Positions 5,703-59,439 of a DNA stretch of 64,000 bases are shown in pieces. Every line of letters starts with the position of its first letter. Within the stretch, counting starts at the first letter, position 1. A program made the translations under genes and the position numbers. The stretch comes from an archaeon 13_2_20CM_2_53_6 (GTDB lineage: Archaea; Thermoproteota; Bathyarchaeia; 40CM-2-53-6), in contig MNDT01000006.1 in the NCBI GenBank assembly GCA_001915065.1, positions 35,330 through 99,329 of the forward strand, written 5' to 3'. Below the pieces are notes generated by a model that searched no databases, was not told the DNA's origin, and saw only the letters and a program-made list of their open reading frames with translations.

Positions 5703-5753
5703 CCTGATCGGGAGTTTTCTCCCACGTCCTATGCCGGTCAGATCCGGAGGATA

Positions 5754-6902
5754 GTGGGCAAGCATCAGAAGTGGCGGGCGGAGGAATGCCTCAACCTGAT
5801 CCCGTCCGAGAATCTGACCAGCCACACTGTAAGACAGCTACTCTCCGGGGATATGGGCCATCGATATCGGGCCGATGACCGGTTCTACAAGGGAGCCAGG
5901 TTCATGGACGAGCTAGAGTCTCTCGGCGAGAAGCTAGCCTGTGAGGTCTTCGGAGCCGACTGGGCGAGCCTCCGGCCCTTGTCAGGCCATATGGCCGATA
6001 TGATAGCTGTGTCGACCCTTACGAAGCCTGGCGGTTCAATCCTCACCGTCAATCCTGGGGACGGGGGATACCCGGGGTTGAGTGACCAGGCAGGATATCC
6101 AACCTTTGTCAATGTCCGGAACCTGTATTTTCCGTTTGATTCCGAGCGGATGAATATCGATGTGGAAAAGGCGCGGGGCATGATCGAGGACGAGAAGCCC
6201 TCGCTTGTAGTGTTCGGCCAATCATTCTTCCTCTTTCCTCACCCGGTGAGAGCGCTAGTCGATGCTTGTACCTCGGCAGGGTCGAGGATCGCGTTCGATG
6301 GATCGCACGTGCTGGGGTTGATTGCCGGGGGCAAATTTCAGAAACCATTGGAGGAAGGTGCAGAACTGATACTAGGGTCTACTCATAAGAGCCTGTTCGG
6401 TCCCCAGGGTGGGATCATCGTCGGGAAGAGGGGTTGTGAATCTGAGGTGAAGGGGCGCCAGTTTCCGGGCTTGGTAGATAACGCGCACTGGAATCGGGTC
6501 GCCGCGCTGGTGTGGGCGTTGGACGAGGCCCGTCGGGTTGGTGGAAAATACGCCGTGCAGGTCATAACGAACTCGAAGGCGTTAGCTAGGGCGTTGCATG
6601 AAGGAGGGGTCCCGGTGAAGTGCTCGGAATACGGGTTCACTGAGTCGCACCAGACGATTCTGGACGTGAAAGATCAGAAGGAGATTGAGGGGTTTACGCA
6701 ACGGTTAGAGGATGCGAATATCATTGTTGACCATGGGATTCGTATCGGGACCTGTGAAGCAACGCGACGGGGGATGAAGGCACAGGATATGGAACGGGTG
6801 GCAGAGCTTATCGTTCGGGTCTACAAAGGGGAGGAGCCGAGCAAGGTTAGAGCGAAGGCGACGAAGCTTCGGCGGGAATTCAACAGGATATTATACACGT
6901 AG
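5754..6902 (+). CDS. glyA: Serine hydroxymethyltransferase
   Basis: LNLIPSENLTS, and the PLP-lysine motif GSTHKSLFGPQGG. The N-terminal helix seems to continue upstream of GTG 5754, in frame back to the rps11 stop, with a candidate ACG at 5724. Confidence 0.85.
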   Translation: MGKHQKWRAEECLNLIPSENLTSHTVRQLLSGDMGHRYRADDRFYKGARFMDELESLGEKLACEVFGADWASLRPLSGHMADMIAVSTLTKPGGSILTVNPGDGGYPGLSDQAGYPTFVNVRNLYFPFDSERMNIDVEKARGMIEDEKPSLVVFGQSFFLFPHPVRALVDACTSAGSRIAFDGSHVLGLIAGGKFQKPLEEGAELILGSTHKSLFGPQGGIIVGKRGCESEVKGRQFPGLVDNAHWNRVAALVWALDEARRVGGKYAVQVITNSKALARALHEGGVPVKCSEYGFTESHQTILDVKDQKEIEGFTQRLEDANIIVDHGIRIGTCEATRRGMKAQDMERVAELIVRVYKGEEPSKVRAKATKLRREFNRILYT

Positions 6903-6932
6903 CAGCCTCGAATCTCGGAGCTGGGTAGGGGT

Positions 6933-7910: not shown

Positions 7911-8229
7911 GACCCAGCTGGAATCATGGCGTCGATATCTCAGGAATAATCCGGCTTCATCAGGCGGCTACGCCCTATCACCCGGTCAGGTCGAACGATG
8001 AGGTCTCCCTCAACCCGGCACCCTTCCGATGGGTGTACAATCGAGTCGCAGTCTCCCTCTGGGTTGTTTCTCGGCAGCCCTTGCGGGAAGATTTCGGACC
8101 TAGACAATCTCACGTGACGCGAATTTCTACAGTTATCACCAGATAGCACACAGTATCCCACATACGGCGGTAATTGTGGACGTTGTCCTATTATCTCCAA
8201 GCCGGGAATAGGGATATCTGTGGTGAAGA

Positions 8230-8424: not shown

Positions 8425-8563
8425 GGATTTAGCGAGATCCGTCCGGACCATCGAGTGGATAGAAAGACAGCGAAGGAATTGGAGAACGCTGAGATAAAAT
8501 ACCCGACTCCGTGACGGTATTACATATATACTTAGTAGCATGGATTGACTTGTCGTACGATTC

Positions 8564-12636: not shown

Positions 12637-13236
12637 CTAGGATTTTCCGGTATCGTCGGACGTTGATAATGCCGGGCCAAGTGGGTCCTCCCTGAGGTCA
12701 AGGATGTTCTTCAGTTCCTTTTTCATCAGCGCTGGGTCGTGGTTGAGGTTGAAGTAGTCAGCGAACGTTGTGGTCGTCCGTAGAGTCTTTGATCGTCCCA
12801 GCTTTTCGTAGCTGATCAGGTCCATCTCTTTCAGCTGCTTGACGTGCTGGTAGGCAAGTTTCCCCCGGACCGCTATGACTCGTGACTGAGCGATCGGCTG
12901 TCTGAGAGCGATGAACGACAGGGTCCGGAGTGGACCCGGGGTCAGCAGTGGCCTGTTCGAGAGCTTCCGGACGTGCTTTGCAAACTCTGGTTTCAGTTGC
13001 ATTACAAATCTTCCATCAGGCAGTTCCAAGACCTGGATCGGGCTGTCTGACTTGGCGTATCTCTCTGCTATGGTATGGACTATCGACTTGATCTTCTCCT
13101 CTGACCTTGCGCCGATGATGGATCCTATCGTCTTGATGTCCAGAGGTCTGCCTGAGACGTATAGCGCTGCCTCGCAGAGCTGTTGCTGCGCGCCAGGCGT
13201 TTTGGGGGCTGGTTCAGTCTGAGACTGCGCTTCCAT
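12637..13236 (-). CDS. scpB: Segregation and condensation protein B
   Basis: EAALYVSGRPLDIKTIGSIIG and tandem winged-helix layout. It overlaps the scpA 3' end and lies downstream of smc. Confidence 0.85.
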   Translation of the reverse strand: MEAQSQTEPAPKTPGAQQQLCEAALYVSGRPLDIKTIGSIIGARSEEKIKSIVHTIAERYAKSDSPIQVLELPDGRFVMQLKPEFAKHVRKLSNRPLLTPGPLRTLSFIALRQPIAQSRVIAVRGKLAYQHVKQLKEMDLISYEKLGRSKTLRTTTTFADYFNLNHDPALMKKELKNILDLREDPLGPALSTSDDTGKS

Positions 13237-13846
13237 CCTTCCTCATCTCTATCTCGATGTCTCCAAACTCATCCAGCTGATTCAGACCAACCTTTCCTTC
13301 GAACGCGAGGAAGAGCAGCATGATGAACATTCTTACAGCCTGAACCGCGTCCCCATCTCCTAAAAGCTTGAGAAAGGACAGTGATCTATCTCGAACGGTC
13401 TCTTTCATGAGTCTGTTGTAGAAGGCCTTCATCTCTTCCTCTATCTTCACGAGCCAATCGTCACCCTGCTCAAACACAGCCGGGGTCCTGCTAACCAGCT
13501 GCGACGTCCCCACCGGCAAGAGCCTCTCAGCCTTCAAGACCTCCAAGATCCCCTTCAGAACCTCTTCTAGCGATGTAGTCGTCGACTGGTACCTGATCGG
13601 AAACGCGAGCGGGGGAGGAACATAATCGGTCGGCCTCTCTGGGGGAGGCTTAGGCGGCTCTTCCATCTTCAGAACCAGTTCTGATTTCATTCGCAGTAGG
13701 ACGGCTGAGGTGAGGAGTGCTGTTCCGGAGACTGAGAAGTCGATGTAGCCCCGGCCTCTCATCTCGCCCATCAATCCAGTCAAGAGTTCGGCGAGATGCA
13801 CATCCCATGGCTTCACGCGGTGGAGGTGGAGCAGATCAAACAGCAC
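13214..13846 (-). CDS. scpA: Segregation and condensation protein A (kleisin)
   Basis: LFDLLHLHRVKPWDVHLAELL resembles the ScpA N-terminal helix. The frame stays open upstream to the smc stop (ACG at 13885-13883), so the start is uncertain. Confidence 0.8.
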   Translation of the reverse strand: MLFDLLHLHRVKPWDVHLAELLTGLMGEMRGRGYIDFSVSGTALLTSAVLLRMKSELVLKMEEPPKPPPERPTDYVPPPLAFPIRYQSTTTSLEEVLKGILEVLKAERLLPVGTSQLVSRTPAVFEQGDDWLVKIEEEMKAFYNRLMKETVRDRSLSFLKLLGDGDAVQAVRMFIMLLFLAFEGKVGLNQLDEFGDIEIEMRKDGSAVSD

Positions 13847-13887
13847 CGAGTAGGGCTGCTTTAGCCAGTACGAGTCTTGGGGCGTTG

Positions 13888-16800
13888 TCAGTCCCTGACC
13901 ACTCCCTTGTTCGGCAGCGAGATCATCTTGCTCTGCCCGTTGTCGATGAAGACCCCGAAGACCCTGTCAGCCCGCGAGATGGTCGTGTCTTTGAGCGAGA
14001 TTACTATGAACTGGGACTCGCCGCTCTTCGACGCCACCAGGGTCGCCAACCGTCTCGTATTCAATACATCAAGGTGAGCATCAATCTCATCCATGATATA
14101 GAACGGCATGGGATGGATCTGTTGCAAAGCGAGTAGGTAGCAGACTGTCGAAACTGACTTCTCTCCACCGCTGGCCGCCGCCATCGTAAGCTCAGTCTTC
14201 CCGGGGAACTGGAGAAACACGTCCAGCCCACCCTCGAACGGATTGTCTGGATTGTCGAGGGCCATTCTTCCGTTGCCACCCTCTGTTATGTCGTGGAAGA
14301 TCTGCTGGAAGGTCTCGTTGACCTTCGTGAACGCGCTCATGAACGTGTCCAGTTTCTTCTTCTCCAGCTCGCCCATGAAGTTGAGAATTCCTAGTTTGTC
14401 TCTCTCAAGCTCGCCAATCCGCTCCGACAGGTGCTTGTAGCCGTCCTTCAAACCCTCATACTGCTCAACGGCCAATTGGTTTACGGCGCCAATCTCTTCC
14501 AGCTCCTTCCCAAGACCAAGCTTGAGCTTTGTAGCATCCTCAATCCCCTCAGGAGTTGTCTCCAGCGTGGTTCCAAAACCGAGACTGTGCAGTTGTGAAT
14601 TCAGCATGACTACCTGCGTGTCCAGCTCTCGAAGCGTCGCCTTCAATTCTGATACGTTCGCGTTGAGCGGGTCCATCCTCTCGATAAGCTGGGTCAGCGA
14701 CTTTTCGATCTCAGAGAACCGTTCCTCGTACTTTCTCCGTTCCTCGCCCACCGATTTGAGGCTCTCGACCAGACGAGCCTTCTCCTCGTTGAGCTTCTTC
14801 ATCTCCTGCTGGAGTTCTTCTGATCTCTTGCCGGCCTCTTCGCCTCTCACTTCTTCACGTCGGATCTCGGATTCTAGCGCACGGGACTGTATACGTAACT
14901 GGTCGTATCCAGGTCTTAGAGTGTCCAGTGTCGCCTGGCTCGACGCTAGTTTGTTCTCAAGCTCTAGTTTCTCCCGCAGCAGTGCCTCAGCCTGAGCCAC
15001 CGCCCCGTCTCTCTCGCGTTCCGCCTGAAGGATCGCCGTTCTTCGCTGCTCGACCTTCAGCTTCGCAAGGTCTTCCTCTTGAACTTTGAGTCGCCGTTTC
15101 ATTTCTCCCTGCTTAGACGCCATCTCCTGCAGCAGCTCTCTTTCTCGCTGCATCGAATTCTCCAAGCTGTCAATCCGCCGTTTCGTCTGCTGAAGCGATA
15201 ATCGGGTGCGCTCCAGGCTCCTCTGAGCCAGCTCAACATCACGGGTCAGCGCCTCGCGCGTCTTGCTGGTGGAGACCCGGTCCTCCTTCAGCTTCACAAT
15301 CTCAGATTCCAGTCGATCAAGCTCTGACCGGGACCTCTGAACAATCGACTCTAGCGACTTGACTGTCCGTTCGAGACCTTCCAGAACATTAGACCTAGGA
15401 ATCAGGGTAGACGCGTCAAACGGCGCGCGATAATACCCGCTCTCTAGCCCACCGCCGGGCTCATATAGGTCTCCGCTCGTGACGACACATCTCTGTCCCT
15501 TCGCGGCGGTGAGAAAGGCCGCTCGCTGGTTCGTGGCAAGCATCGTATCACCGAACACAAACTCGACAGCAGGCGCTATCCGCTTCTCTACCTTGATGAC
15601 CCGTGAGACCGGACCAACGATCCCGGGAGCCTCGTCAAACCCCTCATTCTCGGGCTGAAGCTCCAGATCTTCGAGCGGGATAATCTTTGCACGGCCCAGC
15701 TTTGTGCGTTTCAGACTCTCGACGCACTTGATGGCCACTTCAAGGTCTCTCACTACTAAGGCTCTCATCCAGCCTGCGCTGGCAGCCTCTATCGCCTTGC
15801 TGTGCTCGTCGCTGAACTTGACAAGGTCTTGCAGTCGTCCGAGAACTCCGCTGATCGCGCCCTCATCCGCCATCTCTTCGATCTTCCGGAGCGCTCTTTC
15901 CTCTGCCTGGAGAGTATCCGCTAGAATCTTCTGAGTGTTAAACTCGGTAACTGTAACCCGTGCTCTTTTGGCAACGTCTAGGGCTTCTTCGATCTCCTTG
16001 TGGCGTTGGTTCTTGAGCGCCGTGTACTCCTTCGCCTTCTCCTCGATATCCTCGAGCCTCTTCTCCTCCTCTTTGCCGAGCTTCTCCATCTCACGGATTC
16101 TCTTCTTCAGCTCCTCGGCGAGATTCGTGTACTCCTTGTGACGAGCCTCTAGGGACTGGAGATGACTTGCGGTCAGATCTAGTTTGGTAGAGCTGCCCTT
16201 GCTCGACGCGATTAGCCCGGATAGTTCGCTCTCTATTGCGCGGATCTCTGCGTCGAGGGCTTCCTGAATCTCTGCGTCCTTCGACAACGAGTCCCTCGTG
16301 TTTACGAGCGTAGTGTTGAGCTTCTCGGCCCGCGCATTCGCCTCCTCGAAACGATTCTCTAGATCCGCCTTTCCGCCGGTGAGGGTGCGGATTGTCGCCA
16401 TGAGTTCTTTCGTGCTGTTCTGAATGTTCTCTCCTTGTTTCTGGAGAGACTCTAGTTGTTTGATCCGTGTGTTGAGAATGTTGCGGGCGGCCTCCGCTTC
16501 CGCCTTGGCTCTAACTACCCCATTGCTGGCTTCAGCTATCTTTCTCTCAACATCAAACAGGACCTGGTTTCCCTGTGTGACCGTGTTCTCCTCGTACTGG
16601 CGTCTCTCAGCGGCGACCTTGGCTCTCTGTCCGGTCAGCTCGTCCCGTTGTTGACGGAGGGCTTCGAGATTCTTCTGCTCATTCTCCAACTCTTGGAGGG
16701 CGCCGACTCTCTTTGCTTGGAGGGAGAGTATCTGAGAGGATAGTATCAGTGCCTGCTGGTTTGAGATCTCCTTCTGGATTAGCCTTGAGCGTAGTAAGTC

Positions 16801-29905: not shown

Positions 29906-31507
29906 TTAGGTTTTGTAGTCCCAGAATTCATGAATTTCGACGGCAAGGAGGTCGTGGACCTCGATCTGTCCATCCATAGAGTTGGCGATCCCGCTGGCGA
30001 TATCGTCTCGGCATGGAGATGTGTTCGTGTAAGGCCCGGTGCCATAGCATGTTTGGAACTGATTGACGTAAACCTCATTGATGTCATTGACGTCTACAAC
30101 CCGGTCGTTGTTTACGTCGAGAGCGCGGTTCAGATCGATTGTAACGATCCCTTGATGGATCTTGATAGCTGCGCTTACGTTGAAGGGAAGGCCTTGGTAG
30201 CTCTGGGGTCTGAAGTTTGTTCCCAGTACGAATTTCACGTCTCCGCTAGAGGGGTAGTTGATGTCGAACGTACGAGTGTAGGCTGTGCTTGACGAACCGA
30301 TTCCGTATCCCCTTGTCGTGTTTGTCACCGCAAGCGCTAGTACCCCGTTGACGGAGGTCGTGTTGTGGAGGAGACCGTTTATCGCGATGGTGACATTGCT
30401 GTAGTTGTGCGGACCTTCAGCCCATCCCAACACCTGGTTATAGCTTACGCTGATACCCGGCACGCTCACTGAGATTGCCCACGAATGCTGGAGATTCGTC
30501 CCTAATGTAGTGCGTCCGATGATATTCCAGCTGTAAGTGCCTTCAGCGTTGGGGTTGCAGGGAGCAGTTATTGAGTAGCTGGTCGATCCACTGCTACCAG
30601 GTTGGAGTTCTACTGAAGTTGGTGAAACCCTCGTTGTGAAACCGGAATGCGGGCTATCGGAGAATGAAATGTTGCCGAAAAAGTTCGGGTCAGCCGTCGC
30701 AGTCGTCGTCGTCACGGTTGTGCTGCAAGGAGCCTCCGATATACTAGCCGGGCCGGAGAGCCTGAAGTCAGGATCTGGGCCGGTAGGGCTTTCGCTGAGA
30801 TTGTACTGAGTACCGTAGCAGGTTGTCCCGTCAACCATCACTTGACACAGATACGTGACGAAAACCTGGGCATTGAACTGGACGGTGAAGCCGCTGAAGG
30901 CCTCGGGCACTTGGACTACTGTGCCGAAATCAGCATGGCTGCCGAGGACTCCCTGACGGCATGTGCTTAGACAGAATTCATCGGATGTGTCGTCATTGAC
31001 TGTCCAAGTGTACGTGAGGTTGCCGCTTCCTCCTCCGCCACTGCTCACTGCTGTGGTTGACTTGGCGGGTAGAAGCAGGCTGATCGAGATACCGCTGTAG
31101 GCCAAGGTCACGGGCGATTGGCTGCTAACAGACTGGGTCTGAGGATCAAACCGCCCGAGGTCGGCAGCTTGGCTCGGAAATTGGAAATATGTGTTGGAGA
31201 TCTGCACGACATAGCTCTGTGCGGTAGTTGCATTATGGGCGATGATGTGCATGTCCGCCCCAAAGATGTCGTGGTTGGGGTCGGCCTCGTCGTTGTCTTT
31301 CCAGATGTCTCCGGAGAGTCCCATGCAGAAATTCCCCTGCGTGCCTAAGGGTTTGCAGAGATAGGTCTGTGTTCCGGGTACACTGCCGAAAGTGTTGACG
31401 AGCGTCTCGCTAGCGTGGGCCTTTTGAATACCGGTCAATGCGAAAGCCGAAATAATTAGCAGTGAGACGAGGAGGGCGTGTCGGAGTCCGCTCCGTGCCC
31501 GCCCCGT
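29906..31507 (-). CDS. Secreted beta-rich protein with a C-terminal dockerin-like (EF-hand type) module
   Basis: Signal-peptide-like GRARSGLRHALLVSLLIISAFALTGIQKAHA/SE begins at ACG 31507. The only upstream ATG (31741) adds about 100 implausible residues. The C-terminus has LDVNNDRVVDVNDINEV (a DxNxDxxxDxxD loop) and a second, degenerate loop. Confidence 0.6.
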   Translation of the reverse strand, partial: TGRARSGLRHALLVSLLIISAFALTGIQKAHASETLVNTFGSVPGTQTYLCKPLGTQGNFCMGLSGDIWKDNDEADPNHDIFGADMHIIAHNATTAQSYVVQISNTYFQFPSQAADLGRFDPQTQSVSSQSPVTLAYSGISISLLLPAKSTTAVSSGGGGSGNLTYTWTVNDDTSDEFCLSTCRQGVLGSHADFGTVVQVPEAFSGFTVQFNAQVFVTYLCQVMVDGTTCYGTQYNLSESPTGPDPDFRLSGPASISEAPCSTTVTTTTATADPNFFGNISFSDSPHSGFTTRVSPTSVELQPGSSGSTSYSITAPCNPNAEGTYSWNIIGRTTLGTNLQHSWAISVSVPGISVSYNQVLGWAEGPHNYSNVTIAINGLLHNTTSVNGVLALAVTNTTRGYGIGSSSTAYTRTFDINYPSSGDVKFVLGTNFRPQSYQGLPFNVSAAIKIHQGIVTIDLNRALDVNNDRVVDVNDINEVYVNQFQTCYGTGPYTNTSPCRDDIASGIANSMDGQIEVHDLLAVEIHEFWDYKT

Positions 31508-31722
31508 ACGGCGACGGCCACCCCAAGGAGGGAGAGGGTTATTACGATGCCAGTAAAAAATCCCGCCCCTGCTCCCTGACCGCCAGTGTTCAGGGCCATG
31601 CCCCAAAGATAGCCAGCCACTGTAGAAAATATCACGATAAACACTCCGATGACCAGGATGAACTCCAGGGTTTGGTCCCTTCGCGGCTGACTTTGTTTGG
31701 TGGAGAACAAAATAGGAGTCAT
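31456..31722 (-). CDS. Small 2-TM membrane protein
   Basis: LEFILVIGVFIVIFSTVAGYLWGMAL and GFFTGIVITLSLLGVAVAV. It is out of frame with, and more protein-like than, the 5' extension of ORF 29906..31741. Confidence 0.45.
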   Translation of the reverse strand: MTPILFSTKQSQPRRDQTLEFILVIGVFIVIFSTVAGYLWGMALNTGGQGAGAGFFTGIVITLSLLGVAVAVRGGHGADSDTPSSSHC

Positions 31723-42636: not shown

Positions 42637-42920
42637 TAATCCACGGTAGCAACAAGTCCGTGTTATCAGCAGGGTCAGCCACAGGCCTTATTCCCGATCC
42701 ATTCCCGACTCGTACCTGAACCACCCTGGTCCGCTCAAAACCGAACAGCATCGTTGATGTTATTCTTGAAGGCTGGAGGCGCGGAGCCCGGGGGCCTCTA
42801 CCCCAAATAAGCGCTCTTCAACTTCTCAGTGCACTCGTTCTAATCGAACGGGAAGGACCGCTTGGAAGGAGAGCTCTCTCCCAGGCGCTCCACATCAAAG
42901 ACGGCATAGCTCGAGGACTG

Positions 42921-43373
42921 ATGGAAAGGCTTGCTGAGAGCAAGGTCGTTTCAGTTACCGAGACTGGGGTCCAGCTTTCCAAACTGGGAAAGCAAAGCCT
43001 TCACAAGCTTCTCCGCCAACTATCCATCAAGAAGATCCTCCCTCTCCCAGAGTCGGATCTCGTCATAGGCAGCGCGGCGATGAGCATACACGTCATCGGA
43101 GCATATAGGCCGGGCATGACAGGAGTCCCTCAGAGGGACGAAGCAATCAAAGCAGGTGCCGAAGGCACAATCACCGTAGCGGCGATGGGTAGAAAACTGG
43201 TAATTCCTCCAGACAACAAAAACCTCGCCGTTCTCGCTCCCAGGGAGAACGCTCGCCTCCGTGAGGGGTTTGAACCATCAGACAAGGATCTCGTAGTAAT
43301 CGGATTTGGGAAAGACTCGTCACGTGCGCTCGCCGGGGCCCTCGCAGCCGTCCTTTCTCTTCAAGAACGGTAG
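42921..43373 (+). CDS. Hypothetical protein. A winged-helix-like N-terminal region is encoded upstream of the first canonical start.
   Basis: The frame is open from 42720. Upstream codons read ...QISALQLLSALVLIEREGPLGRRALSQALHIKDGIARGLMERL (wHTH-like), but there is no ATG/GTG/TTG between 42720 and 42921. Confidence 0.5.
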   Translation: MERLAESKVVSVTETGVQLSKLGKQSLHKLLRQLSIKKILPLPESDLVIGSAAMSIHVIGAYRPGMTGVPQRDEAIKAGAEGTITVAAMGRKLVIPPDNKNLAVLAPRENARLREGFEPSDKDLVVIGFGKDSSRALAGALAAVLSLQER

Positions 43374-46656: not shown

Positions 46657-47490
46657 TTGGAACAGACCCAACAGCCACTCCACACCCCACGCACAGTCAA
46701 GCTTGACCGGATAATCGACGAGACACCCTCAATCCGCTCCTTCTGGTTCAGCGACACCACCCTCCATCAAGCCAATCCCGGACAGTTCGCCATGGTCTGG
46801 GTCCCAGGCGTTGACGAAGTACCGATGAGCGTCCTAGCCATCCATGGAAAGAGCGAAGCCGGAGTAGTCATCAAGAAGGGGGGACCCGTCAGCACAGCCC
46901 TCTGGGAAAAGAAGGTCGGGGACATATTCTTCGTCAGAGGACCCTACGGACACCCCTTCAGCGTAGGCCACCACCACAGACTCCTCGTCGTAGGCGGCGG
47001 TACGGGGTTGGTCCCCCTCCTCTCCCTTCTCGTCCATTTTCGGGGCCGGGACGTAACACTCATAACCGGAGCCAGAACCTCAAGCGAACTCCTCTTCAAA
47101 GACTGGCTAATAGCAGACAGCAAGGAACACCGGTTCAAACTCATCTTCGCAACCGACGACGGAACCTACGGAGAGAAGAACCAGGTACCAAAGGTAGCGG
47201 AGGAGATTCTAGGAAAACAACGATTTGACGCGATATACACCTGCGGACCCGAGCCTATGATGAAGAAGATCTACGACCTAGCAACGAAGATGCACTGCCA
47301 CATCCAGGTGAGCCTCGAAAGAGTCTTCAAATGTGGCGTGGGAATATGCGCCGCCTGCGTGATCGGACCCTATCTCGTCTGCCACGATGGACCCGTGTTC
47401 TCCGAGATAGAGCTTAGCGGAATGCCAGAGTTCGGACACACCAGACGGGACCTGTCCGGAAAGAAAGTCCCCCTCAACGCATCACACTAA
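46657..47490 (+). CDS. PyrK-like FAD/NAD(P)-binding oxidoreductase with a C-terminal 2Fe-2S cluster motif
   Basis: Ferredoxin-reductase-type layout (FAMVWVPGVDEVPMSV, VVGGGTGLVPL) and the cysteine cluster CGVGICAACV...C. No pyrD is adjacent. Confidence 0.7.
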   Translation: MEQTQQPLHTPRTVKLDRIIDETPSIRSFWFSDTTLHQANPGQFAMVWVPGVDEVPMSVLAIHGKSEAGVVIKKGGPVSTALWEKKVGDIFFVRGPYGHPFSVGHHHRLLVVGGGTGLVPLLSLLVHFRGRDVTLITGARTSSELLFKDWLIADSKEHRFKLIFATDDGTYGEKNQVPKVAEEILGKQRFDAIYTCGPEPMMKKIYDLATKMHCHIQVSLERVFKCGVGICAACVIGPYLVCHDGPVFSEIELSGMPEFGHTRRDLSGKKVPLNASH

Positions 47491-47571
47491 ATCAGCGCCT
47501 GTACCGGGAGGACGAAGCGTTAATTAACGCGGCAGAGCATCACGAGCCAGTAACCTAGGAGAACGAGACAC

Positions 47572-47739
47572 ACGCCAACTCACGGCTCATTGACAAAGGC
47601 AGGAAAGGTCCGACAACAGACTCCAAAGATAGCGGCTCAGAACAAGACAAGCATCCCGCCACGTGAGCGTGTACGCAGGAACGCGCAGAAAAGGTTCGTG
47701 CTAGGCAGAAAACCCGGCCAGAACTACATCCGAGTCTAG
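47572..47739 (+). CDS. rps30e: 30S ribosomal protein eS30 (absent from the ORF track)
   Basis: Hand translation gives (T)PTHGSLTKAGKVRQQTPKIAAQNKTSIPPRERVRRNAQKRFVLGRKPGQNYIRV, stop TAG 47737-47739. The codon at the expected Met position is ACG 47572. GGAG at 47558-47561. The canonical alternative is TTG 47590. Confidence 0.75.
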   Translation, partial: TPTHGSLTKAGKVRQQTPKIAAQNKTSIPPRERVRRNAQKRFVLGRKPGQNYIRV

Positions 47740-47867
47740 CCTCCTTCTCATCCCATTAGAGCGATTCTCCAAGCTAGTCTGGGCTCTCCCGGCCCCGATC
47801 GACAGAATTTATAGTCGAGCCAGCCCGTTCAAGCAAACCCGGACCAATACAAGCACGGTAACACAAC

Positions 47868-49061: not shown

Positions 49062-49073
49062 GGTCGCGAGAAG

Positions 49074-50707: not shown

Positions 50708-52045
50708 ATGTCCGTCTCGGAACTTGAAGGATACCATGGAGAAATCCTTCGTAGGCTAAAGACCGCCAACGCAAAGGTCGGAGACATAGTCAAGATCACC
50801 ACAATGACTGGAGAGGTCTTCGAAGGAGCACTATTCCCACGCTCCGAATATGGCGATCCCAACCATATCGTTCTCAAGCTGAAGAACGGCTACAACGTCG
50901 GGATCCACTTCCAGCGGACGGAGAAGATTGAAGTTGTCGGAGGAGGCCAGAAACCCCACTTTACCAGACCATCTCCCCCACCGAAGCAACCCGGTCTTCC
51001 CAGAGTAGCAATCATCAGCACAGGAGGAACGATCGCGAGCAGAGTGGACTATCGAACTGGTGCCGTCCAGCCAGCTCTCACAGCAGCAGACCTGGCAAGC
51101 GTCGTCCCCGAACTTGCCAACATAGCAGAAGTCGAGGCCGACATACTGTTCAGCGAATTGAGCGAGAACGTCACACCATCGCAATGGAAGACTCTCGCAG
51201 AGGATATCTCCAGAAGAATAACAGAAGGAGTAAGCGGGGTCGTTGTAAGCCAGGGAACTGACACGATGCACTACACCGCAGCAGCCTTGAGCTTCGCGCT
51301 TCAACATCTCCCCGTCCCAGTCCTCTTGGTCGGAGCCCAGAGATCCTCGGATCGCCCCAGCTCCGACGCTGCATCCAACCTGACCGGAGCCGTTGCGATG
51401 GCGGCCAACGCGGATCTCGGCGTGGTTGGAGTCACAATGCACCAAGACCTCTCGGACCGTTACATCGTTGCACACAGGGGGACGAGAGTACGAAAATGTC
51501 ACACGAGCCGTCGCGACGCATTCAAGTCCATCAACTCAAATCCTCTCGCCCGGTACGATCTGCACACTCGACAGATCGAATATTTCGAGAGCCCTCCCAG
51601 ACGGAGGTCAGATCACAATTTCAGCCTCAAACCGGAATTCGACCACCACGCATACCTCCTGAAATTCTACCCAGGCTTCGATCCTCAAATCATAGATGCC
51701 GTGATCAAAGCCGGCGCCCGCGGTCTAGTTCTGGAAGGCACTGGCCTTGGACACGTTTCCAAATACTGCTACGACTCCATCCGGAACGCCGTGAAAAACG
51801 ATGTTCCCGTTTTCATGACGTCCCAGACAATATGGGGAAGAGTCGACCTGAACGTCTACGTCACGGGACGAGACCTGCTCAACCTCGGCGTTGTCCCCCT
51901 CGAAGATATGATCCCAGAGACAGCGCTTGTGAAACTCATGTGGGTGCTCGGCCAGACCAGGTCCATAGACAAGGTCCACGGACTCATGCTCCAGCCGATA
52001 GCTGGAGAAATTACCGAGAGGACGACGATAACGGAGGCGGCCTAG
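50708..52045 (+). CDS. gatD: Glutamyl-tRNA(Gln) amidotransferase subunit D
   Basis: N-terminal GatD domain plus the asparaginase-like STGGTIASRVDYRTGAV and HGTDTM-like QGTDTMHYTA. Confidence 0.9.
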   Translation: MSVSELEGYHGEILRRLKTANAKVGDIVKITTMTGEVFEGALFPRSEYGDPNHIVLKLKNGYNVGIHFQRTEKIEVVGGGQKPHFTRPSPPPKQPGLPRVAIISTGGTIASRVDYRTGAVQPALTAADLASVVPELANIAEVEADILFSELSENVTPSQWKTLAEDISRRITEGVSGVVVSQGTDTMHYTAAALSFALQHLPVPVLLVGAQRSSDRPSSDAASNLTGAVAMAANADLGVVGVTMHQDLSDRYIVAHRGTRVRKCHTSRRDAFKSINSNPLARYDLHTRQIEYFESPPRRRSDHNFSLKPEFDHHAYLLKFYPGFDPQIIDAVIKAGARGLVLEGTGLGHVSKYCYDSIRNAVKNDVPVFMTSQTIWGRVDLNVYVTGRDLLNLGVVPLEDMIPETALVKLMWVLGQTRSIDKVHGLMLQPIAGEITERTTITEAA

Positions 52046-52063
52046 GCGCCCCAGAACTACTCG

Positions 52064-53950
52064 ACGGTCGGTCTCAGAGTCGGACTCGAAGTACACAGGC
52101 AGCTGGACACTCGCCACAAGCTCTTCTGTGAGTGTCCAACAATCCTGTCGACAAAACCGCCGACGCTCACATTCGAACGGAGGCTCAGACCAACACAGAG
52201 CGAGCTGGGCCAGGTGGATCCCGCGGCTCTCTTCGAGTTCAACAAAGGACGAGCCATCAATTACGAAGCCGACCCAGAAACAACCTGCTTAGTCGAGCTA
52301 GACGAGGAGCCGCCGCACCAACTCAACCCTGAAGCAGTCGACATCGCGCTCACCATCAGCCTCCTCCTGCACGCTCGTCCGATGGACGAGGTGCACGTGA
52401 TGCGCAAGGTCGTCATCGACGGGTCCAACACGACAGGATTCCAGCGCACCGCGATAATCTCGCTCAATGGCAAACTAGACGCGGACGGAAAAGAAATCCC
52501 GATTCAGCAGATATCACTAGAAGAGGACGCTGGACGCAAGACAGGCGAGGATCAGAACGCGGTCATCTTTCGCCTCGACCGGCTCGGGGTCCCCCTCATC
52601 GAGATTGCTACCGGTCCGGTAATCAACGACGCTCAAGAAGCGGGCAGAGTGGCCCTCGCAATAGGACAGGTGCTACGGGCCACGAAGAAGGTGAAGCGAG
52701 GTCTCGGTAGCATAAGGCAGGACCTCAACGTGTCGATAAGGGATGGTGCTCTTATCGAGATCAAAGGGGTCCAAGAACTCGACCTGGTCTCCAAAGCGGT
52801 AGAGCTTGAAGTCCAGCGTCAAACCACTCTTCTACAGATACGAGACGAGCTGAGGAGCAGAAAAATCAAGCCGGCAGACCTCAAAGAGGACTACAATGAT
52901 CTTACATCGCTCGTGTCTCAATCAGAATCGAAGATAGTCCAGTCAGCCCTGAAGCAAGGAGGAACCGTTCAAGGGGTTAAGCTAGCAGGCTTCGCGGGCT
53001 TGCTGAAGAAAGAGCTGATGCCGGGAATCAGATTGGGGACGGAGATGGCGAAGCGGGCTGCCTTCTGGGGACGGGTGGGAGGAGTCTTCCACTCTGATGA
53101 GCTGCCCGGGCACGGAATAAGTCAGGCAGAGGTTGATGCTATCGCGGGGAAGCTCGAATGCCACACAAGCGATGCCTTCGTTCTAATTGCTGACTCTAGG
53201 GAAAACGTGTTGGACGGGTTGAGGGCTGTTGTCGAAAGAGCTAGGGAAGCATTAGTCGGAGTGCCTGAGGAGACGAGGACTGCCAACCCGGATGGTACAA
53301 CACACTACATGAGACCGAGACCAGGCGCGGCCAGAATGTATCCGGAGACTGATGTGCCGCCGGTTCAGATCAGTTCCGACAGAATCAGGCAAATCGGAGA
53401 CAACCTGCCACGAATGCCCGAGGAGCTCGCCAAAGAGATAGGGTCAAAATACGATATCAGCCCAAAGCTTGCAGCTCAACTCGTCAACTCCGAATACGTA
53501 GACACCTTCGGTGAAATAACCGCTACCGCGAAGGACATAGCGCCAAGCTTCGTCGCCACCGTACTCACAGAATCTATGCGAAGCCTAGCGAGAGATCGTG
53601 TCCCTATAGAAAGTCTTGAAGATACACATCTGAAGGATATCTTCCGGCTCGTTGCTGAAGGCAAGACTGCCAAAGAATCGGTGCTAGAGATCCTCAAGTG
53701 GTTGGCCATGCATCCTGCGGCAAACGCAGCCTCCGCTATTGACGAGTTGAATCTCGGCATGATGGGTAAGACAGAGTTGAAGGGGATAATATCGAAAGTT
53801 TTGGAGTCACACCGATCGTTTGTCCAGAAGAATGGAGCCAAGGCGCTCGGGAAGATGATGAACTTGGTCATGGCGGAAGTCCGAGGAAGAGCCGACCCAA
53901 GACTGGTAACCGAGCTACTACAGGCGGAACTTGAACAAGCCAGAGGATGA
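52064..53950 (+). CDS. gatE: Glutamyl-tRNA(Gln) amidotransferase subunit E (start unresolved)
   Basis: The conserved N-terminus NYSTVGLRVGLEVHRQLDTRHKLFCECP...RRLRPTQSELGQVDPAALFE is encoded from 52046, right after the gatD TAG and in the same frame. The first canonical start is GTG 52214. A candidate ACG lies at 52064. Confidence 0.85.
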   Translation, partial: TVGLRVGLEVHRQLDTRHKLFCECPTILSTKPPTLTFERRLRPTQSELGQVDPAALFEFNKGRAINYEADPETTCLVELDEEPPHQLNPEAVDIALTISLLLHARPMDEVHVMRKVVIDGSNTTGFQRTAIISLNGKLDADGKEIPIQQISLEEDAGRKTGEDQNAVIFRLDRLGVPLIEIATGPVINDAQEAGRVALAIGQVLRATKKVKRGLGSIRQDLNVSIRDGALIEIKGVQELDLVSKAVELEVQRQTTLLQIRDELRSRKIKPADLKEDYNDLTSLVSQSESKIVQSALKQGGTVQGVKLAGFAGLLKKELMPGIRLGTEMAKRAAFWGRVGGVFHSDELPGHGISQAEVDAIAGKLECHTSDAFVLIADSRENVLDGLRAVVERAREALVGVPEETRTANPDGTTHYMRPRPGAARMYPETDVPPVQISSDRIRQIGDNLPRMPEELAKEIGSKYDISPKLAAQLVNSEYVDTFGEITATAKDIAPSFVATVLTESMRSLARDRVPIESLEDTHLKDIFRLVAEGKTAKESVLEILKWLAMHPAANAASAIDELNLGMMGKTELKGIISKVLESHRSFVQKNGAKALGKMMNLVMAEVRGRADPRLVTELLQAELEQARG

Positions 53951-53994
53951 CGGCTTCGCCTCGCGACAGTCCAGACAAGACCTTGGCCCTCGAG

Positions 53995-54432
53995 ATGGAT
54001 GATCTCGACCGACGAATCCTCCAAGCATATCTCATGGACGCTAGACTATCCTACAGGGAGCTGGGCCACAAGCTCGGAGTCTCAACGACCACGATCCAGT
54101 CACGAACCATCAAACTGGAAAAGGCCGGAATCATACGAGGATACTCCGCAATCTACGACCATGAAAAGATAGGATTCCAGCTGACCGCCATAACAGAGGT
54201 ATCAGTCGCCAAGGGGAAATTGCTAGAGCTAGAACGGGAAGTGGCTAAGATGCCTCAGGTCTTGGCTGTCTACGATGTCACGGGTCTCACTGATGCTATT
54301 GTGATTGCCAAGTTCAAGAGTCGTGAAGACTTGAGTAGGTTCACAAAGGCACTGTTGGCGATGCCTTTCGTCGAACGGACGAATACCCACATGGTTCTAA
54401 CGACTGTCAAAGAAGACTTCAGGTTACTCTGA
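53995..54432 (+). CDS. Lrp/AsnC family transcription regulator
   Basis: LDRRILQAYLMDARLSYRELGHKLGVSTTTIQSRTIKLEKAGIIRGY plus a RAM domain. The ORF track extends to 53947. Confidence 0.8.
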   Translation: MDDLDRRILQAYLMDARLSYRELGHKLGVSTTTIQSRTIKLEKAGIIRGYSAIYDHEKIGFQLTAITEVSVAKGKLLELEREVAKMPQVLAVYDVTGLTDAIVIAKFKSREDLSRFTKALLAMPFVERTNTHMVLTTVKEDFRLL

Positions 54433-54433
54433 A

Positions 54434-55279
54434 TCAAAATTTCCGGGTGGCATGTTTCAGCTCGGCGACATGCTTCTTCAACAATTCTTCCATTTCGCCA
54501 GCATTGCTCAAATGGTCCTGGATGATCTGCACTAGTGCGCTTCCTACTATTGCTCCGTCCGCGCCGGCCTTTATCAGGGTTCTAACGTGGTCTGGTGTGG
54601 AGACGCCGAAGCCTGCTGAGACTGGAGTTCTTCGCTTGTTGATGGAACTTACTCGTTTGAGTGTGTCCAATGCCTGTGGTCCAAGCGTCTTTCGTGGACC
54701 TGTCACGCCGTAGAGAGAGACTAGATAGAGAAATCCGGTGGTCTCTGCGAGGATCCGTCTCAACCTCGTCTCTGGAGTGTTTGGTGCAGCAAGGAGAATA
54801 GTGTCGATGTCATTCTTCGAGGCTAGCTTGTGGAATTGGGGATCAGCGTTGGCCGGCATGTCTGGAACCACCACTCCGCTCACACCGGATCTTTGGGCGA
54901 TTTGGAAGAAGCGTTCGGCTCCCATTGCGAGAATCGGATTGCAATAGGTGAGAAGGACGAGGGGTACGTCGTGCTGGGCAGAAAATTCTCCTGCTAGCGA
55001 TAGAACTTTCTTGGTAGTTATGCCTGCGGTCAAGGCTCTCTGGCTTGAGGCTTGGATTACCGGTCCATCGGCAATGGGGTCCGAGAACGGGATGCCAATC
55101 TCAACGATATCTGCGCCTCCCTCGACTAGTGCTGAGGCGTTAGCGTGGAACTCTTCGGGTGTCGGGTCTCCTCCGGTCAAGTATGCGATCAGAGCGCCCT
55201 CTCTTCGGGACCGGAGTTCCTCGAACTTGGAGGCTATAGGGTGCTCATTGTGGGAAGTGTCTTGCAACGATCTCGACAT
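54434..55279 (-). CDS. trpA: Tryptophan synthase alpha chain
   Basis: [28 protein letters not shown] and GFGVSTPDH. Confidence 0.9.
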
Positions 55280-56441
55280 CTTTGTCGCCTCGTCCTGAGA
55301 GGTTCACGATGATAGAATCGCTGGTTGGATACCTTTTCGCCAGTTTGAGAGCGTAGCTCAGAGCGTGGGCAGGTTCCAGAGCCGGCATTATTCCTTCTTG
55401 ATCAGACAGTCTCTTGAACGCGTCCAGCGCATCATTGTCCGATACTGCCCTGTACTTTACTCTCCCAGTGCTCTTGAGATAGGCATGCTCTGGTCCAACA
55501 GCCGGGTAGTCCAGGCCCGCTGAGATGCTCCTAGTGTTCTGGACCTGGCCGTTCTTGTCTTGTAGGAGATAGGTTAGCATGCCATGAAGGACACCCTCGC
55601 TGCCCGCTACCAGTGCCGCTGCATGATGACCTGGTTGGATGTCTTGCCCTCCCGCTTCGACTCCGTAAAGGTCTACTTCGAGATCATGGAGGAATTGGTG
55701 GAAGATTCCGATGGAGTTGCTTCCGCCCCCAACGCAGGCGATCACAGCCCGGGGGAGCTTGTCTTCTCGCGCGAGGATCTGGTGTCGGGCCTCCTTTCCG
55801 ATGATGCTCTGGAAGTCGCGGACTATGGTCGGGTATGGGTGGGGTCCCACGGCGGAGCCGAGCAGGTAGTAGGTGTTCTCTACGTTGGTTACCCAGTCCC
55901 TGAGGGACTCGTTGATTGCGTCTTTGAGGGTTCTTGAGCCCGAGTCTACCGGGTGGACTTCGGCACCCAGCATTTTCATCCGGTAAACGTTGAGCTTCTG
56001 CCTTTCCATATCTTCGCGGCCCATGTATATCTCGGATTGTAGTCCGAGAGCGGCGCATGCCATGGCCGTTGCAACGCCGTGCTGCCCAGCCCCTGTTTCC
56101 GCGATGATTCTCTTCTTTCCCATTCGTCCGGCGAGGAGGGCTTGTCCGAGAGTGTTGTTGATCTTGTGTGCTCCGCCGTGAAGGAGGTCTTCTCTCTTCA
56201 GATAGATCTTTGCGCCTCGGAGATTCCTTGTGAGGTTCCGAGCGAGATAGAGTGGCGTGGGGCGTCCTGCGTAGGATTCCAGCAGATTCCTGAGTTCTTT
56301 CTTGAAGGATGGATCTCGTGAGTATTCGTCATACGCTTCTTCCAGATCCTGCAACGGCTTCATCAGGGTCTCTGGCACGTATTGGCCGCCGTACTTGCCG
56401 AACCTACCGCGAGAGTTTGTCGCGGCTTGCCTGATCTTCAT
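55245..56441 (-). CDS. trpB: Tryptophan synthase beta chain
   Basis: [24 protein letters not shown] (PLP lysine) and GGGSNSIG. Confidence 0.95.
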
Positions 56442-57214
56442 GAGTTTACGAGTTCCCTGACTTTCTGCTCGACGTTTGAGGACTTCATTATGCAGGTTCC
56501 AACGAGAAAAGCTTGGGCGCCTGCTGTCTTGAGCCGTTTTATGTCGGCTACGGTTTCTATTCCGCTTTCGGAAACTACGGGAGCGCTAACGGGTTTGGTT
56601 TCTGCAAGAATTCTTTCTGTGGTGTCAAGGTCGACTTGGAAGCTGGAGAGTTTGCGGTTGTTTATTCCGTAGAGGTCTGGCTGAAGGGTTCGCACCTTTT
56701 CGAACTCAGAGGGCGTGTTGGCTTCGACTAGTACCTCGAGGCCTAAGCCTCTGGCTTCCTGCATCATAGTGGTAATATCAACATCCGTTAGACCTGCGCT
56801 GAAAAGTTCCGATATCAGGACGACCGTATCTGCTCCAAGTCTTGCGGCCGCTCTCAACTGTCGTGGGGATACGATGATGTCCTTCATTATCAAAGGCGCA
56901 ATCACACTCCGCGCCACTTCCGACAGAATGTTGAGGCCGCCCTTGAAACTTACAGGGTCGGTGATTATGGATAGCCCGCAGGCTCCGCCCGCTAGCATTT
57001 CTTTCGCGATTCTTACAGCTGGTTCATAGTCACGTATTTTTCCGGATGACGGAGATGCATATTTTATCTCGGCGATAATTGGGGTCTTCCCGCTTGCTCT
57101 TACTGCCCGGATCAGGCTTTTGCGTCTTCGGCTTATCGCAGTAACTGTGTCATAATATCCGGCGCCGACCCTTTCCCGGGCAAGTTCTGACAGTTCTGCT
57201 AAGCGGTCTGGCAA
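56438..57214 (-). CDS. trpC: Indole-3-glycerol phosphate synthase
   Basis: [29 protein letters not shown]-like INNRKL and ESGI. Confidence 0.9.
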
Positions 57215-57217
57215 TCG

Positions 57218-58267
57218 TTATGCCAGACTATCTATGCGCTGAGTACTTCCGCCCGAGAATTCAACCATGTCTTGTAGCGTCCCCAATGCCGCGCCATCGC
57301 TGATGATGTTGCTTGCGATCTCGATTCCATCAGAAAAGTCATGAGCTTTCTCGGATAGGATAAAGGCGGCAGCGGCGTTTGCCATCACCGTCTGGACGCG
57401 AGGATCGTCCCTACTCATCTTTCCGGACAGAATGCGGCTAGTTAGGCGTGCGTTCTCTTCTGGGCAAGAGCCGCCCAGCTCCCGAGGATGCGTCCTCTTG
57501 AAACCTAGATCTTCGGGTTCAATCTCATCTAGGACAAAGCTACCGTTAGTTGCTTGGAGAATCTCAGTCTTGCCTGTCAGAGATATTTCGTCAATGCCGT
57601 CTATGCCGTGGACTGTCATTACAGATCTGGCTCCAAGATTGAGAGCGGCTCGGGCCATGGGTTCGAGTAGATCTAGGTCACAGACTCCAATTAGCTGGGC
57701 GTTGGCGCCTGCGGGGTTGGTCAAAGGGCCGAGGATATTGAAGACCGTCCGTACCCCGATCTCCCTCCTCACTGGACCTACGTTCTTCATCGCCGGATGA
57801 AAATTTGGGGCATACAGGAACCCGATTCCCACCTCATCGATAGACCGTTCCACATTCTCCGGGTCCATGTCGAGGTTCAGTCCCAATTGTTCGAGCAGGT
57901 CCGCGCTGCCACACTTACTTGTGAAGGAGCGATTGCCGTGTTTGGCCACGGGTATCCCGGCTGCGGCGACAACGAACGCGCTCGTGGTGCTCACATTGAA
58001 CGTCTTGATCTTGTCACCTCCAGTCCCGCACGTGTCCACTAATAGGCCGCCTACGCTCGGGTGAATTCTCCTGCTGAACTCTCTCATCACACTTGCAAAG
58101 GCTGTCACCTCTTCCACCGTTTCTCCCTTCTTCCTCAAGACAACGAGGAACGATCCGATCTGAGCGGGGCTTGCCTCTCCCGTCATGATCTCCTTCATGC
58201 ACTGCGTTGCCTCTTCCTTTGTCAGATTCTCGTTCGCTAGGAGGGTGGAAATACACTCCCTGATCAT
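57218..58267 (-). CDS. trpD: Anthranilate phosphoribosyltransferase
   Basis: AQIGSFLVVLRKKGET, DTCGTGGDKIKTFNVST, NRSFTSKCGSADLLE. Start taken at MIRECIS; the ORF track extends to 58297. Confidence 0.9.
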   Translation of the reverse strand: MIRECISTLLANENLTKEEATQCMKEIMTGEASPAQIGSFLVVLRKKGETVEEVTAFASVMREFSRRIHPSVGGLLVDTCGTGGDKIKTFNVSTTSAFVVAAAGIPVAKHGNRSFTSKCGSADLLEQLGLNLDMDPENVERSIDEVGIGFLYAPNFHPAMKNVGPVRREIGVRTVFNILGPLTNPAGANAQLIGVCDLDLLEPMARAALNLGARSVMTVHGIDGIDEISLTGKTEILQATNGSFVLDEIEPEDLGFKRTHPRELGGSCPEENARLTSRILSGKMSRDDPRVQTVMANAAAAFILSEKAHDFSDGIEIASNIISDGAALGTLQDMVEFSGGSTQRIDSLA

Positions 58268-58626
58268 GATAGACATCCTCCCCAGGAATAGGCGCATTTC
58301 GCGAGTTGGCCTAGTTCCGCTATTGATTGAGCAAAGTTGTGTGAGGATTGTTGACGCGTGATCTCAGTTTGTTGGAAAAGGCAGACGGAAACTTGGTTAA
58401 TAGTGCGGTCCAGTTTTCTCAGTCGGTGGAGTGGTTGTCCAAAGTCTATACCCCATGGACGCAGCCTTGAGAGTTGTTCATACATACACTATTTATTGCT
58501 TGCGTGACCACTTCTGTACATATGAGAGTCGGAACTCGATCCTATTTCCAGAGGGAGCTTTGGCTTAGGATTCTTCCGAAAACATCCACATTGCTCGGTT
58601 CCTCTCTCCTCGCAAACCCGTCTCGG

Positions 58627-59439
58627 CTAAGTCGCTGCCATTGATGGCGCAGTACCTTCGGCCAGAATGGCGAGAGCTTGAGATGCACTCGCGCCGTGGT
58701 GAACAATGTCGACAAGCGCCCTTGTCATCCGAGTCGGGTCATGGTGCTGGAAGACGTTGCGGCCGATCGAGACCCCTGCAGCACCAGCCTTGATAGAGTC
58801 AGAAATCATCTGCAGCGCGTCATTGTCGCTGGAAGCCTTTGGCCCCCCTGCAATCACTACCGGAACCTTCACGGTCCCAACGACATTACGAAAGCTCTCG
58901 GTATCCCCGGTGTAATTGGTTTGTACGATGTCCGCGCCAAGCTCAAAGCCAAGCCTAGCTGCATGACTCACCACCTCATAATCGCCTTCACTCTGGATTC
59001 CAGGACCCCGAGGATACATCATTGCCAAAGCTGGTAAGCCGAAGTCGTCGCATTCCTCAATGATTCGGGAAAACCTGTCGAGCATGTCCTGCTCACGCTG
59101 AGAACCCACGTTGATGTGCACGGAGACGGCGTCTGCGCCCAGGCGTAGCGCTTCCTTGACCGTAGAGACCTGCGTCTTCCAGTGAGGATCAGCGGACAGT
59201 CGAGTTGCTCCCGAAAGATGAAGAATAAGGCCGAGTCGATTCATATCTACAGTCTTAGCGATTCCCGCGTGAACGAGAATGGCGTCAGCCTCGCCTTGCG
59301 AGACGTCGCCTACTATCCTCGCCATATCTTCCAGCCCATGTGTGGGTCCCGCTGAAACGCTGTGATCCATCGGTATAATGACTGTCCTATGGTCGTCGCG
59401 GAAGATCCGCCTCAGACGTCGGGTCTTTCCTGTTTCCGT
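58627..59439 (-). CDS. DhnA-type class I aldolase / ADH synthase (AroA') family homolog, possibly inactive
   Basis: Close collinear resemblance to ADH synthase / FbaB-type proteins (TVIIPMDHSVSAGP, AVSVHINVGS, MMYPRG, VVIAGGPK, GVSIGRNVFQ). The conserved N-terminus GKTRRLRRIF lies upstream of ATG 59370 with only ACG 59439 as a candidate start. The motif ADIVQTNYTG has Gln where Lys is expected. Confidence 0.7.
   Translation of the reverse strand, partial: TETGKTRRLRRIFRDDHRTVIIPMDHSVSAGPTHGLEDMARIVGDVSQGEADAILVHAGIAKTVDMNRLGLILHLSGATRLSADPHWKTQVSTVKEALRLGADAVSVHINVGSQREQDMLDRFSRIIEECDDFGLPALAMMYPRGPGIQSEGDYEVVSHAARLGFELGADIVQTNYTGDTESFRNVVGTVKVPVVIAGGPKASSDNDALQMISDSIKAGAAGVSIGRNVFQHHDPTRMTRALVDIVHHGASASQALAILAEGTAPSMAAT

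Follow-up and report, generated by a model that had tools for sequence, protein, structure and literature searches.

Bacteria occasionally begin translation on noncanonical codons, as with the AUU starts of infC and pcnB, and CUG, AUA and AUC are counted among the initiators of NCBI translation table 11. Archaea are described as starting on AUG, GUG or UUG, with the archaeal factor aIF1 rejecting noncanonical codons (PMC4705826, PMC8211752, PMC6237735), AUU among them (PMC4705826, PMC8211752). Here we describe the start codons found in a 64,000-nucleotide (nt) stretch of DNA, referred to below as the window, which corresponds to C1:35330-99329 of a soil Bathyarchaeia genome (the source genome; 1.79 Mb in 69 contigs). 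A preliminary description of the window, made from its letters only, had proposed that several genes, including those for ribosomal protein eS30 and an aldolase, carry ACG where an initiator is expected, and had offered ACG-initiated translation, editing of ACG to AUG, or a systematic sequence problem as possible reasons. Comparison with related genomes shows that noncanonical codons at the start columns of orthologues are real, reproducible and far beyond chance in this lineage. These codons are present in the DNA as such, are either conserved over the long term or interchange with canonical starts, and come with stronger Shine-Dalgarno (SD) sequences.

Start codons of genes in the window

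The start regions were aligned for as many as 21 species within the genus of the source genome, together with other families from its order, and the codons at each start column were read from the alignments by script. The sister genus was represented by G034, and the genus included a sister genome 98% identical to the source (G009). Seven of the roughly 50 genes in the window have no usable canonical start:

47572..47739, plus strand: ribosomal protein eS30 gene; predicted start ACG 47572-47574, SD GGAG 47558-47561
58627..59439, minus strand: class-I aldolase/ADHS-like gene; predicted start ACG 59439-59437
5724..6902, plus strand: glyA (serine hydroxymethyltransferase); predicted start ACG 5724-5726, with GGGAG about 9 nt upstream
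29906..31507, minus strand: secreted protein gene; probable start ACG 31507-31505, immediately 5' of the signal peptide
13214..13891, minus strand: scpA; predicted start CTG 13891-13889, overlapping the smc stop TGA 13890-13888
42726..43373, plus strand: winged-helix (CggR-like) regulator gene (CggR_N + DUF4443); probable start CTG 42726-42728, alternative ATC 42753-42755
52046..53950, plus strand: gatE, directly after the in-frame gatD stop TAG 52043-52045; candidate starts GCG 52046-52048 and ACG 52064-52066

In eS30 the ACG is followed by CCA ACT CAC GGC TCA TTG (P T H G S L), the arrangement is GGAG-N10-ACG, and the earliest canonical codon in frame is the TTG at 47590. Archaeal eS30, which sits in the mRNA entry channel close to the A site and to the site of aIF1A, has a Met-Pro N-terminus, and after removal of the Met its Pro2 contacts helix h44 (PMC11698992); the ACG-CCA register therefore falls exactly at the initiator position. 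Across 15 genus genomes the start column was ACG (six), ATA (four), ATT (three) or ATC (two) and never a canonical codon, as opposed to ATG (four) or TTG (one) in five outgroup genomes. In other words, the noncanonical state has been kept while the identity of the codon drifts among four near-cognates, much as in a weak start of the infC type. A feedback of eS30 on its own weak start is conceivable, for which the location of the protein in the ribosome is circumstantial evidence. The Met-Pro register and the difference between genus and outgroups confirm ACG as the predicted start of eS30, in agreement with the preliminary description.

From 59487 onward the aldolase frame is open, and the ATG at 59370 is the first ATG, GTG or TTG in it. 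Its start column was ACG in the source genome only; elsewhere in the genus it was ATG in 12 genomes, the 98%-identical sister included, and TTG in one (G014), and in the outgroups it was ATG, GTG or TTG. The alignment of this ACG with an ATG in so close a sister, and with ATG or TTG in other relatives, confirms it as the predicted start and bears out the earlier statement that the gene has an ACG without a canonical alternative.

For glyA the start column was ACG in 10 of 10 genus genomes. The 5' flank carries indels that are not multiples of three, and in three species there is an in-frame TAG five codons upstream; downstream, the column of GTG 5754 reads GTG, GTA, GTT or CTG, i.e. an ordinary Val/Leu codon. 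Moreover, the Pfam SHMT profile, when projected onto the protein, has its position 1 at the residue encoded by the ACG. The gene was found in one outgroup genome only and is not part of the outgroup comparison. The preliminary description had ranked glyA among its weaker cases in view of the GTG 5754 option; the ACG start holds up while that ranking does not, and we consider glyA a strong case for a predicted ACG start.

The secreted protein probably starts, as proposed before, at the ACG directly preceding its signal peptide. A single homologue was available (G003, 32% identity), and it starts with an ATG that overlaps the TGA of an upstream open reading frame (ORF) with two transmembrane segments (2-TM), its signal peptide being in the same register to within ±1 residue. 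The SD pairing energy of the ACG start is -9.9 kcal/mol. We also observed a small 2-TM ORF in the window (31456-31722, minus strand), just 5' of the secreted protein gene, with an overlap of about 50 nt at the start of the latter; the corresponding pair in G003 is linked by a TGATG overlap.

Two window genes appear to start with CTG. For scpA, the preliminary description had pointed to ACG 13885-13883, with GTG 13846 as a canonical option. We rejected both, since both columns vary (ACG/GTT/GTG/GCT/GCG and GTG/GTC/GTA, respectively) and the conserved start is CTG 13891-13889: this column was CTG in five and TTG in six of 11 genus genomes, over the smc TGA, such that the source genome has CTGA where relatives have TTGA. 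The SD of scpA is strong (GGGAGTGGT, -13.1 kcal/mol). In the winged-helix regulator, the Pfam DNA-binding domain occupies residues 40-97 of the open frame and the first ATG is found only at residue 68. The column of CTG 42726-42728 was CTG (eight), GTG (one) or CCG (one), that of ATC 42753-42755 was ATC (eight) or ATG (two), and the CTG is probably the start.

The gatE gene behaved differently from the preliminary account of it. The absence of any canonical start over the 56 codons after the gatD stop was verified, but the ACG at 52064 is not supported as the initiator: its column is GCC in most relatives, and the ACG is common only to the source and its closest sister genome, which has an adjacent GTG. 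The codon directly after the stop was TCG at 14 of 18 genus loci, GCG at two (the source genome among them), TCA at one and TTG at one, and in four outgroup genomes it was ATG, ATG, GTG and TTG.

All six sites given in the preliminary description (those of eS30, the aldolase, GatE, the secreted protein, glyA and scpA) were correctly placed on recheck, and comparison with sister genomes gave a different outcome from gene to gene, ACG being kept in glyA, swapped with near-cognates in eS30, matched by ATG in the sister for the aldolase and not conserved in GatE. As a whole, that description is thus partly upheld: ACG is supported as the initiator of eS30, the aldolase, glyA and the secreted protein, and not of scpA or GatE. 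Likewise, ACG-initiated translation survives as to the position of the start and fails as to specificity for ACG, considering that CUG is equally used and that AUA, AUU and AUC also occur.

Start columns and coding stretches across the genome

Noncanonical codons were also found at the start columns of the following genes:

SecY: ACG in all 12 genus genomes and in the sister genus (G034); TTG (six) or ATG (three) in nine genomes of other families
uL11: CTG in 10 and GTG in one of 11 genus genomes; ATG, GTG or TTG in 10 outgroup genomes, including G034
Thermosome: ACG in the source genome and three relatives, ATG in 17; ACG in G034
MetE-like: ACG in the source genome only, ATG in seven and TTG in four genus genomes; TTG in G034
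DUF72: ACG in nine, ATG in one and ACA in one genus genome; in G034, GTG two codons 5' of the ACG
Ku: CTG in two, ATG in two and TTG in five genus genomes

In the source genome the SecY gene lies on C6, and the thermosome and uL11 starts are at C32:11744-11746 and C56:20931-20933, respectively. A TAG stands immediately 5' of the ACG in SecY of G005, and TGA TTT GAC precedes the ACG in the thermosome gene of G034. As the thermosome (L147-L167, L297) has ACG in four species and in the sister genus, and ATG in 17, ACG and ATG must replace each other over short evolutionary times. For nine genes (eS30, aldolase, thermosome, SecY, uL11, Ku, MetE-like, DUF72 and scpA) canonical codons in relatives or outgroups fix the start column, and in all nine the source genome has ACG (six) or CTG (three) at that column. 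Since ACG and CTG together make up about 4% of sense codons, the chance of nine out of nine is approximately 1e-13, and coincidence is therefore negligible. Open-frame analysis and Pfam coordinates, in addition, showed the interval from the upstream stop to the conserved N-terminal residues to be free of canonical in-frame starts.

The 12 validated noncanonical starts had a median pairing energy of -8.7 kcal/mol with an anti-SD sequence that was assumed because the assembly lacks the 16S 3' end; with the same assumed sequence, the median was -5.5 kcal/mol for canonical starts inside operons (n = 176; p = 7e-4) and -4.0 kcal/mol for other canonical starts (n = 643), and the SDs of the noncanonical starts lay at functional spacing. 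When all 61 sense codons 5' of the first canonical start were ranked by their association with an SD, ATG, TTG, CTG and ACG came out on top. The initiator tRNA gene encodes the usual CAU anticodon and a normal GGG/CCC stem. An apparent insertion follows its anticodon stem (GGGCTCATAACCC; C44 minus, index ~100-250). Nearly all tRNA genes of this genome bear introns, with five found by ARAGORN without an intron search and 27 with it, and 12 matches to Rfam tRNA.

At the level of the whole genome, a coding-like stretch of 12 codons or more precedes the first ATG, GTG or TTG in 113 of 1405 predicted genes, and by our estimate no fewer than 5-8% of genes are without a canonical start. A Pfam scan of 30 genes, 20 from the 113-gene list and 10 from the window, placed the beginning of the domain 5' of the first canonical codon in about 20 of them, for example in BirA, NnrD (for which the start-region alignment is ambiguous), the proteasome beta subunit, eL31, two PIN toxins and a KaiC-like ATPase, while in an ABC ATPase the Walker A motif lies 60 codons ahead of the first canonical start. 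The open frame of eL31 (C56 minus, index 4721) has about 85 Lys/Glu/Pro-rich codons before the L31e domain, as a possible extension of the protein, and runs for 122 codons without a canonical start. Two candidates were rejected: the purA ORF (C1 minus, index 5644) opens inside its domain, with the P-loop missing, and the sufS ORF (C29 minus, index 7519) matches Pfam from profile position 34. As both matches begin within the profile, we took these ORFs to be N-terminally truncated and left them out; they look like frameshifted or split genes.

Genome-wide enrichment of ACG, which the preliminary description had suggested as a test, was seen in part. ACG was enriched 1.76-fold (and CTG 1.69-fold) in the first eight codons after the upstream stop, and ACG 1.45-fold around coding-potential change points, both being weak and confounded signals; in a third comparison, equally weak and confounded, which took in everything ahead of the first canonical start, ATA ranked first (1.57-fold, p = 1e-5) and ACG was not enriched. 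Because this genome-only enrichment is weak, the case rests on homology. An expectation-maximization (EM) start-codon model (61 sense codons, hexamer coding potential plus SD bins) went unused on account of its poor resolution, with weight leaking to AGA, AGG and CAA, which are non-coding-like, and a position weight matrix of start context was dropped since the nucleotide profile around ATG starts is almost free of positional information. Among genes with a canonical start near the upstream stop, TTG (288) was nearly as common as ATG (398), and GTG was rare (133); in the EM model, too, GTG was barely enriched as a start.

Probable direct initiation and its alternatives

We think it probable, from the sequence comparisons, that this lineage initiates directly on near-cognate codons, mainly ACG and CUG but also AUA, AUU and AUC, each one mismatch away from AUG, in roughly a tenth of its genes. 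The much stronger SDs of the validated noncanonical starts favour direct, SD-positioned initiation of this kind. A strong SD/anti-SD duplex would bring the near-cognate codon into the small-subunit P site, where Met-tRNAi (anticodon CAU) would be accepted with two of three base pairs, perhaps because the start-codon check, which is normally imposed by aIF1 with aIF2, is relaxed in this lineage and looser than in other archaea. We infer that the initiator tRNA inserts Met at the near-cognate starts, that initiation fidelity is relaxed in the lineage, and that the additional two aIF1 copies found in the genus take part.

Three SUI1/aIF1 genes are present in nearly all 22 genus genomes and one in the sister genus; in 13 outgroup genomes at most one was detected, and none in two of these. 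Those of the source genome lie outside the window:

C21:7924-8142, plus strand: aIF1 paralogue
C44:4637-4846, minus strand: aIF1 paralogue
C60:8079-8294, minus strand: aIF1 paralogue

Copy 1, which has the zinc knuckle, shares 95% identity with the single copy of the sister genus. Copies 2 and 3 do not have the knuckle and share 40% and 33% identity with copy 1, respectively; in copy 3 a His-rich loop 1 replaces the basic R-K-W-G-K loop, and LHGELR replaces LQGDHR. This triplication is at most suggestive of a link with the noncanonical starts. As a requirement for ACG starts, on the other hand, it is weakened by the sister genus, in which one aIF1 was detected and which already has ACG at SecY and the thermosome; the extra paralogues are therefore not strictly required.

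The sister genus is one of several observations that weigh against direct initiation. Nearly all of the noncanonical codons (ACG, CTG, TCG, GCG) are T-to-C derivatives of canonical starts, as editing would predict, and the TCG or GCG found after the gatD stop in 16 of 18 genus genomes is not a single-mismatch near-cognate of AUG. The crude genome-only enrichment of ACG is modest, at 1.4-1.8 fold, and the SD energies depend on the assumed anti-SD sequence.

That the sites are sequencing or assembly errors, or decaying pseudogenes with lost start codons, is hardly credible. The ACGs of the aldolase and MetE-like genes are indeed confined to the source species, with ATG in the closest sister, and the purA and sufS ORFs do appear truncated at their N-termini, but contigs from four soil metagenome runs (four studies, assembled independently) match the window over 47400-47800 and 51900-59600, with zero differences at the ACGs of eS30, GatE and the aldolase, which excludes a sequence problem at these sites. 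ATG is not depleted genome-wide, and a global T-to-C artefact is therefore absent. Furthermore, the essential SecY, glyA, uL11 and eS30 keep ACG or CTG in up to 13 species, with frames intact and SDs kept, so the systematic sequence problem considered in the preliminary description is refuted. Editing is a different matter, though we still judge it unlikely: C-to-U changes in the mRNA, as in plant organelles, would turn ACG, CUG, UCG and GCG into AUG, UUG, UUG and GUG, with AUA, AUU and AUC serving as table 11 starts. Nearly every validated noncanonical start is one C-to-U step from a canonical codon (ACG in at least seven genes, CTG in four, TCG/GCG in GatE), and editing would provide a full-strength start for the essential and abundant SecY, uL11 and thermosome, as well as the sole simple account of a conserved TCG/GCG after the gatD stop with a well-spaced GGAGG. 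Not all of the noncanonical starts are convertible, however, as the ATT, ATC or ATA of eS30 in 9 of 15 species cannot yield AUG by a C-to-U change; the noncanonical starts also have significantly stronger SDs, which an edited AUG would not require, and the sites share no sequence context. Taken together, the non-editable ATH codons of eS30 and the strong SDs favour direct initiation over editing. A profile of the DYW-type deaminase (PF14432) had no match in any of 37 genomes, a search without a positive control, since the control genomes were unmatched too, and one confined to this deaminase family. Literature searches gave no case of C-to-U editing of archaeal mRNA, and we know of none. Metatranscriptome contigs (eight runs, five stretches) were short, sparse and often from related strains, and left the start-codon bases uncovered.

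Quite unlikely, in our estimate, is an initiator tRNA or P site altered such that the middle position accepts C as U, possibly through a modification at anticodon position 35 or in nearby rRNA, which would give a code of N-Y-G plus A-U-H and not a general relaxation. The observed ACG, GCG, UCG, CUG, AUG, GUG, UUG and AUH match this code, which would cover the TCG/GCG column of GatE without editing. Yet the tRNAi gene is normal, modifications are invisible in DNA, a precedent for such a modification is to our knowledge lacking, and GatE may instead reflect coupling of termination and reinitiation. Indeed, for GatE alone, it is possible, if doubtful, that the protein is made without a start codon of its own, either by read-through of the gatD stop, giving a GatD-GatE fusion, or by termination-reinitiation. 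GatD and GatE function as a complex, as is textbook knowledge, and their genes share one frame with a single TAG or TAA between them at all 18 genus loci (window 52033-52048; L021-L037, L081); GGAGG (52033-52037) lies 8 nt 5' of GCG 52046-52048 and, across the genus, 8-9 nt before the post-stop codon, and several species have no near-cognate codon ahead of the conserved GLKVGLE motif of GatE. At the same time, the occurrence of both TAG and TAA at the end of gatD makes a single recoded stop unlikely, read-through is typically inefficient and would not supply stoichiometric GatE, and the TTG near the junction in one genus member and the GTG in another imply independent initiation. Finally, one could picture a reprogrammed initiation code in which C counts as U at codon position 1 or 2 and ACG, GCG, UCG and CUG are full-strength starts, by way of editing (unprecedented in archaea) or of a modified tRNAi or P site; the aIF1 paralogues and the never-canonical eS30 might then form a circuit that tunes stringency, like eIF1/eIF5 in eukaryotes. 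We regard this as somewhat unlikely.

Comparison with known systems

Full-text literature searches found no report of archaeal ACG or CUG starts or of unusual start codons in Bathyarchaeia. If direct or reprogrammed initiation holds true, prokaryotes would here have their first natural case of an initiation code that is broadly relaxed or reprogrammed. A whole family of abundant soil archaea seems to rely on ACG and CUG as the sole starts of genes that are essential and highly expressed. The lineage would then offer a natural experiment on how aIF1 and aIF2, both eukaryote-like, and eS30 set the stringency of start-codon choice. On the practical side, about one gene in ten in these genomes would be shortened or overlooked by standard gene callers, with consequences for protein databases, domain annotation, signal-peptide prediction and completeness estimates of Bathyarchaeia metagenome-assembled genomes, all of which would be distorted.

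The rare noncanonical starts of bacteria resemble those described here in that a near-cognate codon stands behind an SD and is read by the initiator tRNA, and infC in particular offers a parallel to eS30, as a weak start kept by selection and, in eS30, never canonical in 15 species. However, such starts are limited to a handful of genes per bacterial genome, whereas here they would concern about 10% of genes, SecY, uL11, GlyA and the thermosome among them; table 11 does not list ACG, here the most frequent noncanonical codon; and the factor at work in bacteria is IF3, as opposed to the archaeal aIF1, aIF1A and aIF2.

Near-cognate initiation in eukaryotes and their viruses (CUG, ACG and GUG, policed by eIF1/eIF5) shows the same hierarchy of codons, with CUG and ACG prominent, and aIF1 is homologous to eIF1; factor variants may set stringency in both. 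In eukaryotes, though, these starts are mostly alternative or regulatory and inefficient, and depend on scanning and Kozak context; here they are the only predicted starts of housekeeping genes and go with SD pairing. The editing of ACG to AUG in plant organelles (PPR-DYW) is similar in that a genomic ACG occupies exactly the position of the conserved initiator and T-to-C changes are tolerated at starts, and dissimilar in that no DYW deaminase was detected here (37 genomes, no positive control) and eS30 has ATT, ATC and ATA, which cannot be edited.

With canonical archaeal initiation (PMC4705826, PMC7531240) the lineage shares SD-led and operon-internal starts, a CAU initiator tRNA and the presence of aIF1. 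It departs from it in that canonical archaeal initiation uses only AUG, GUG and UUG, with aIF1 rejecting AUU in Sulfolobus, whereas ACG, CUG and AUH appear to be routine here, and in that a single aIF1 there is replaced by three paralogues in this genus.

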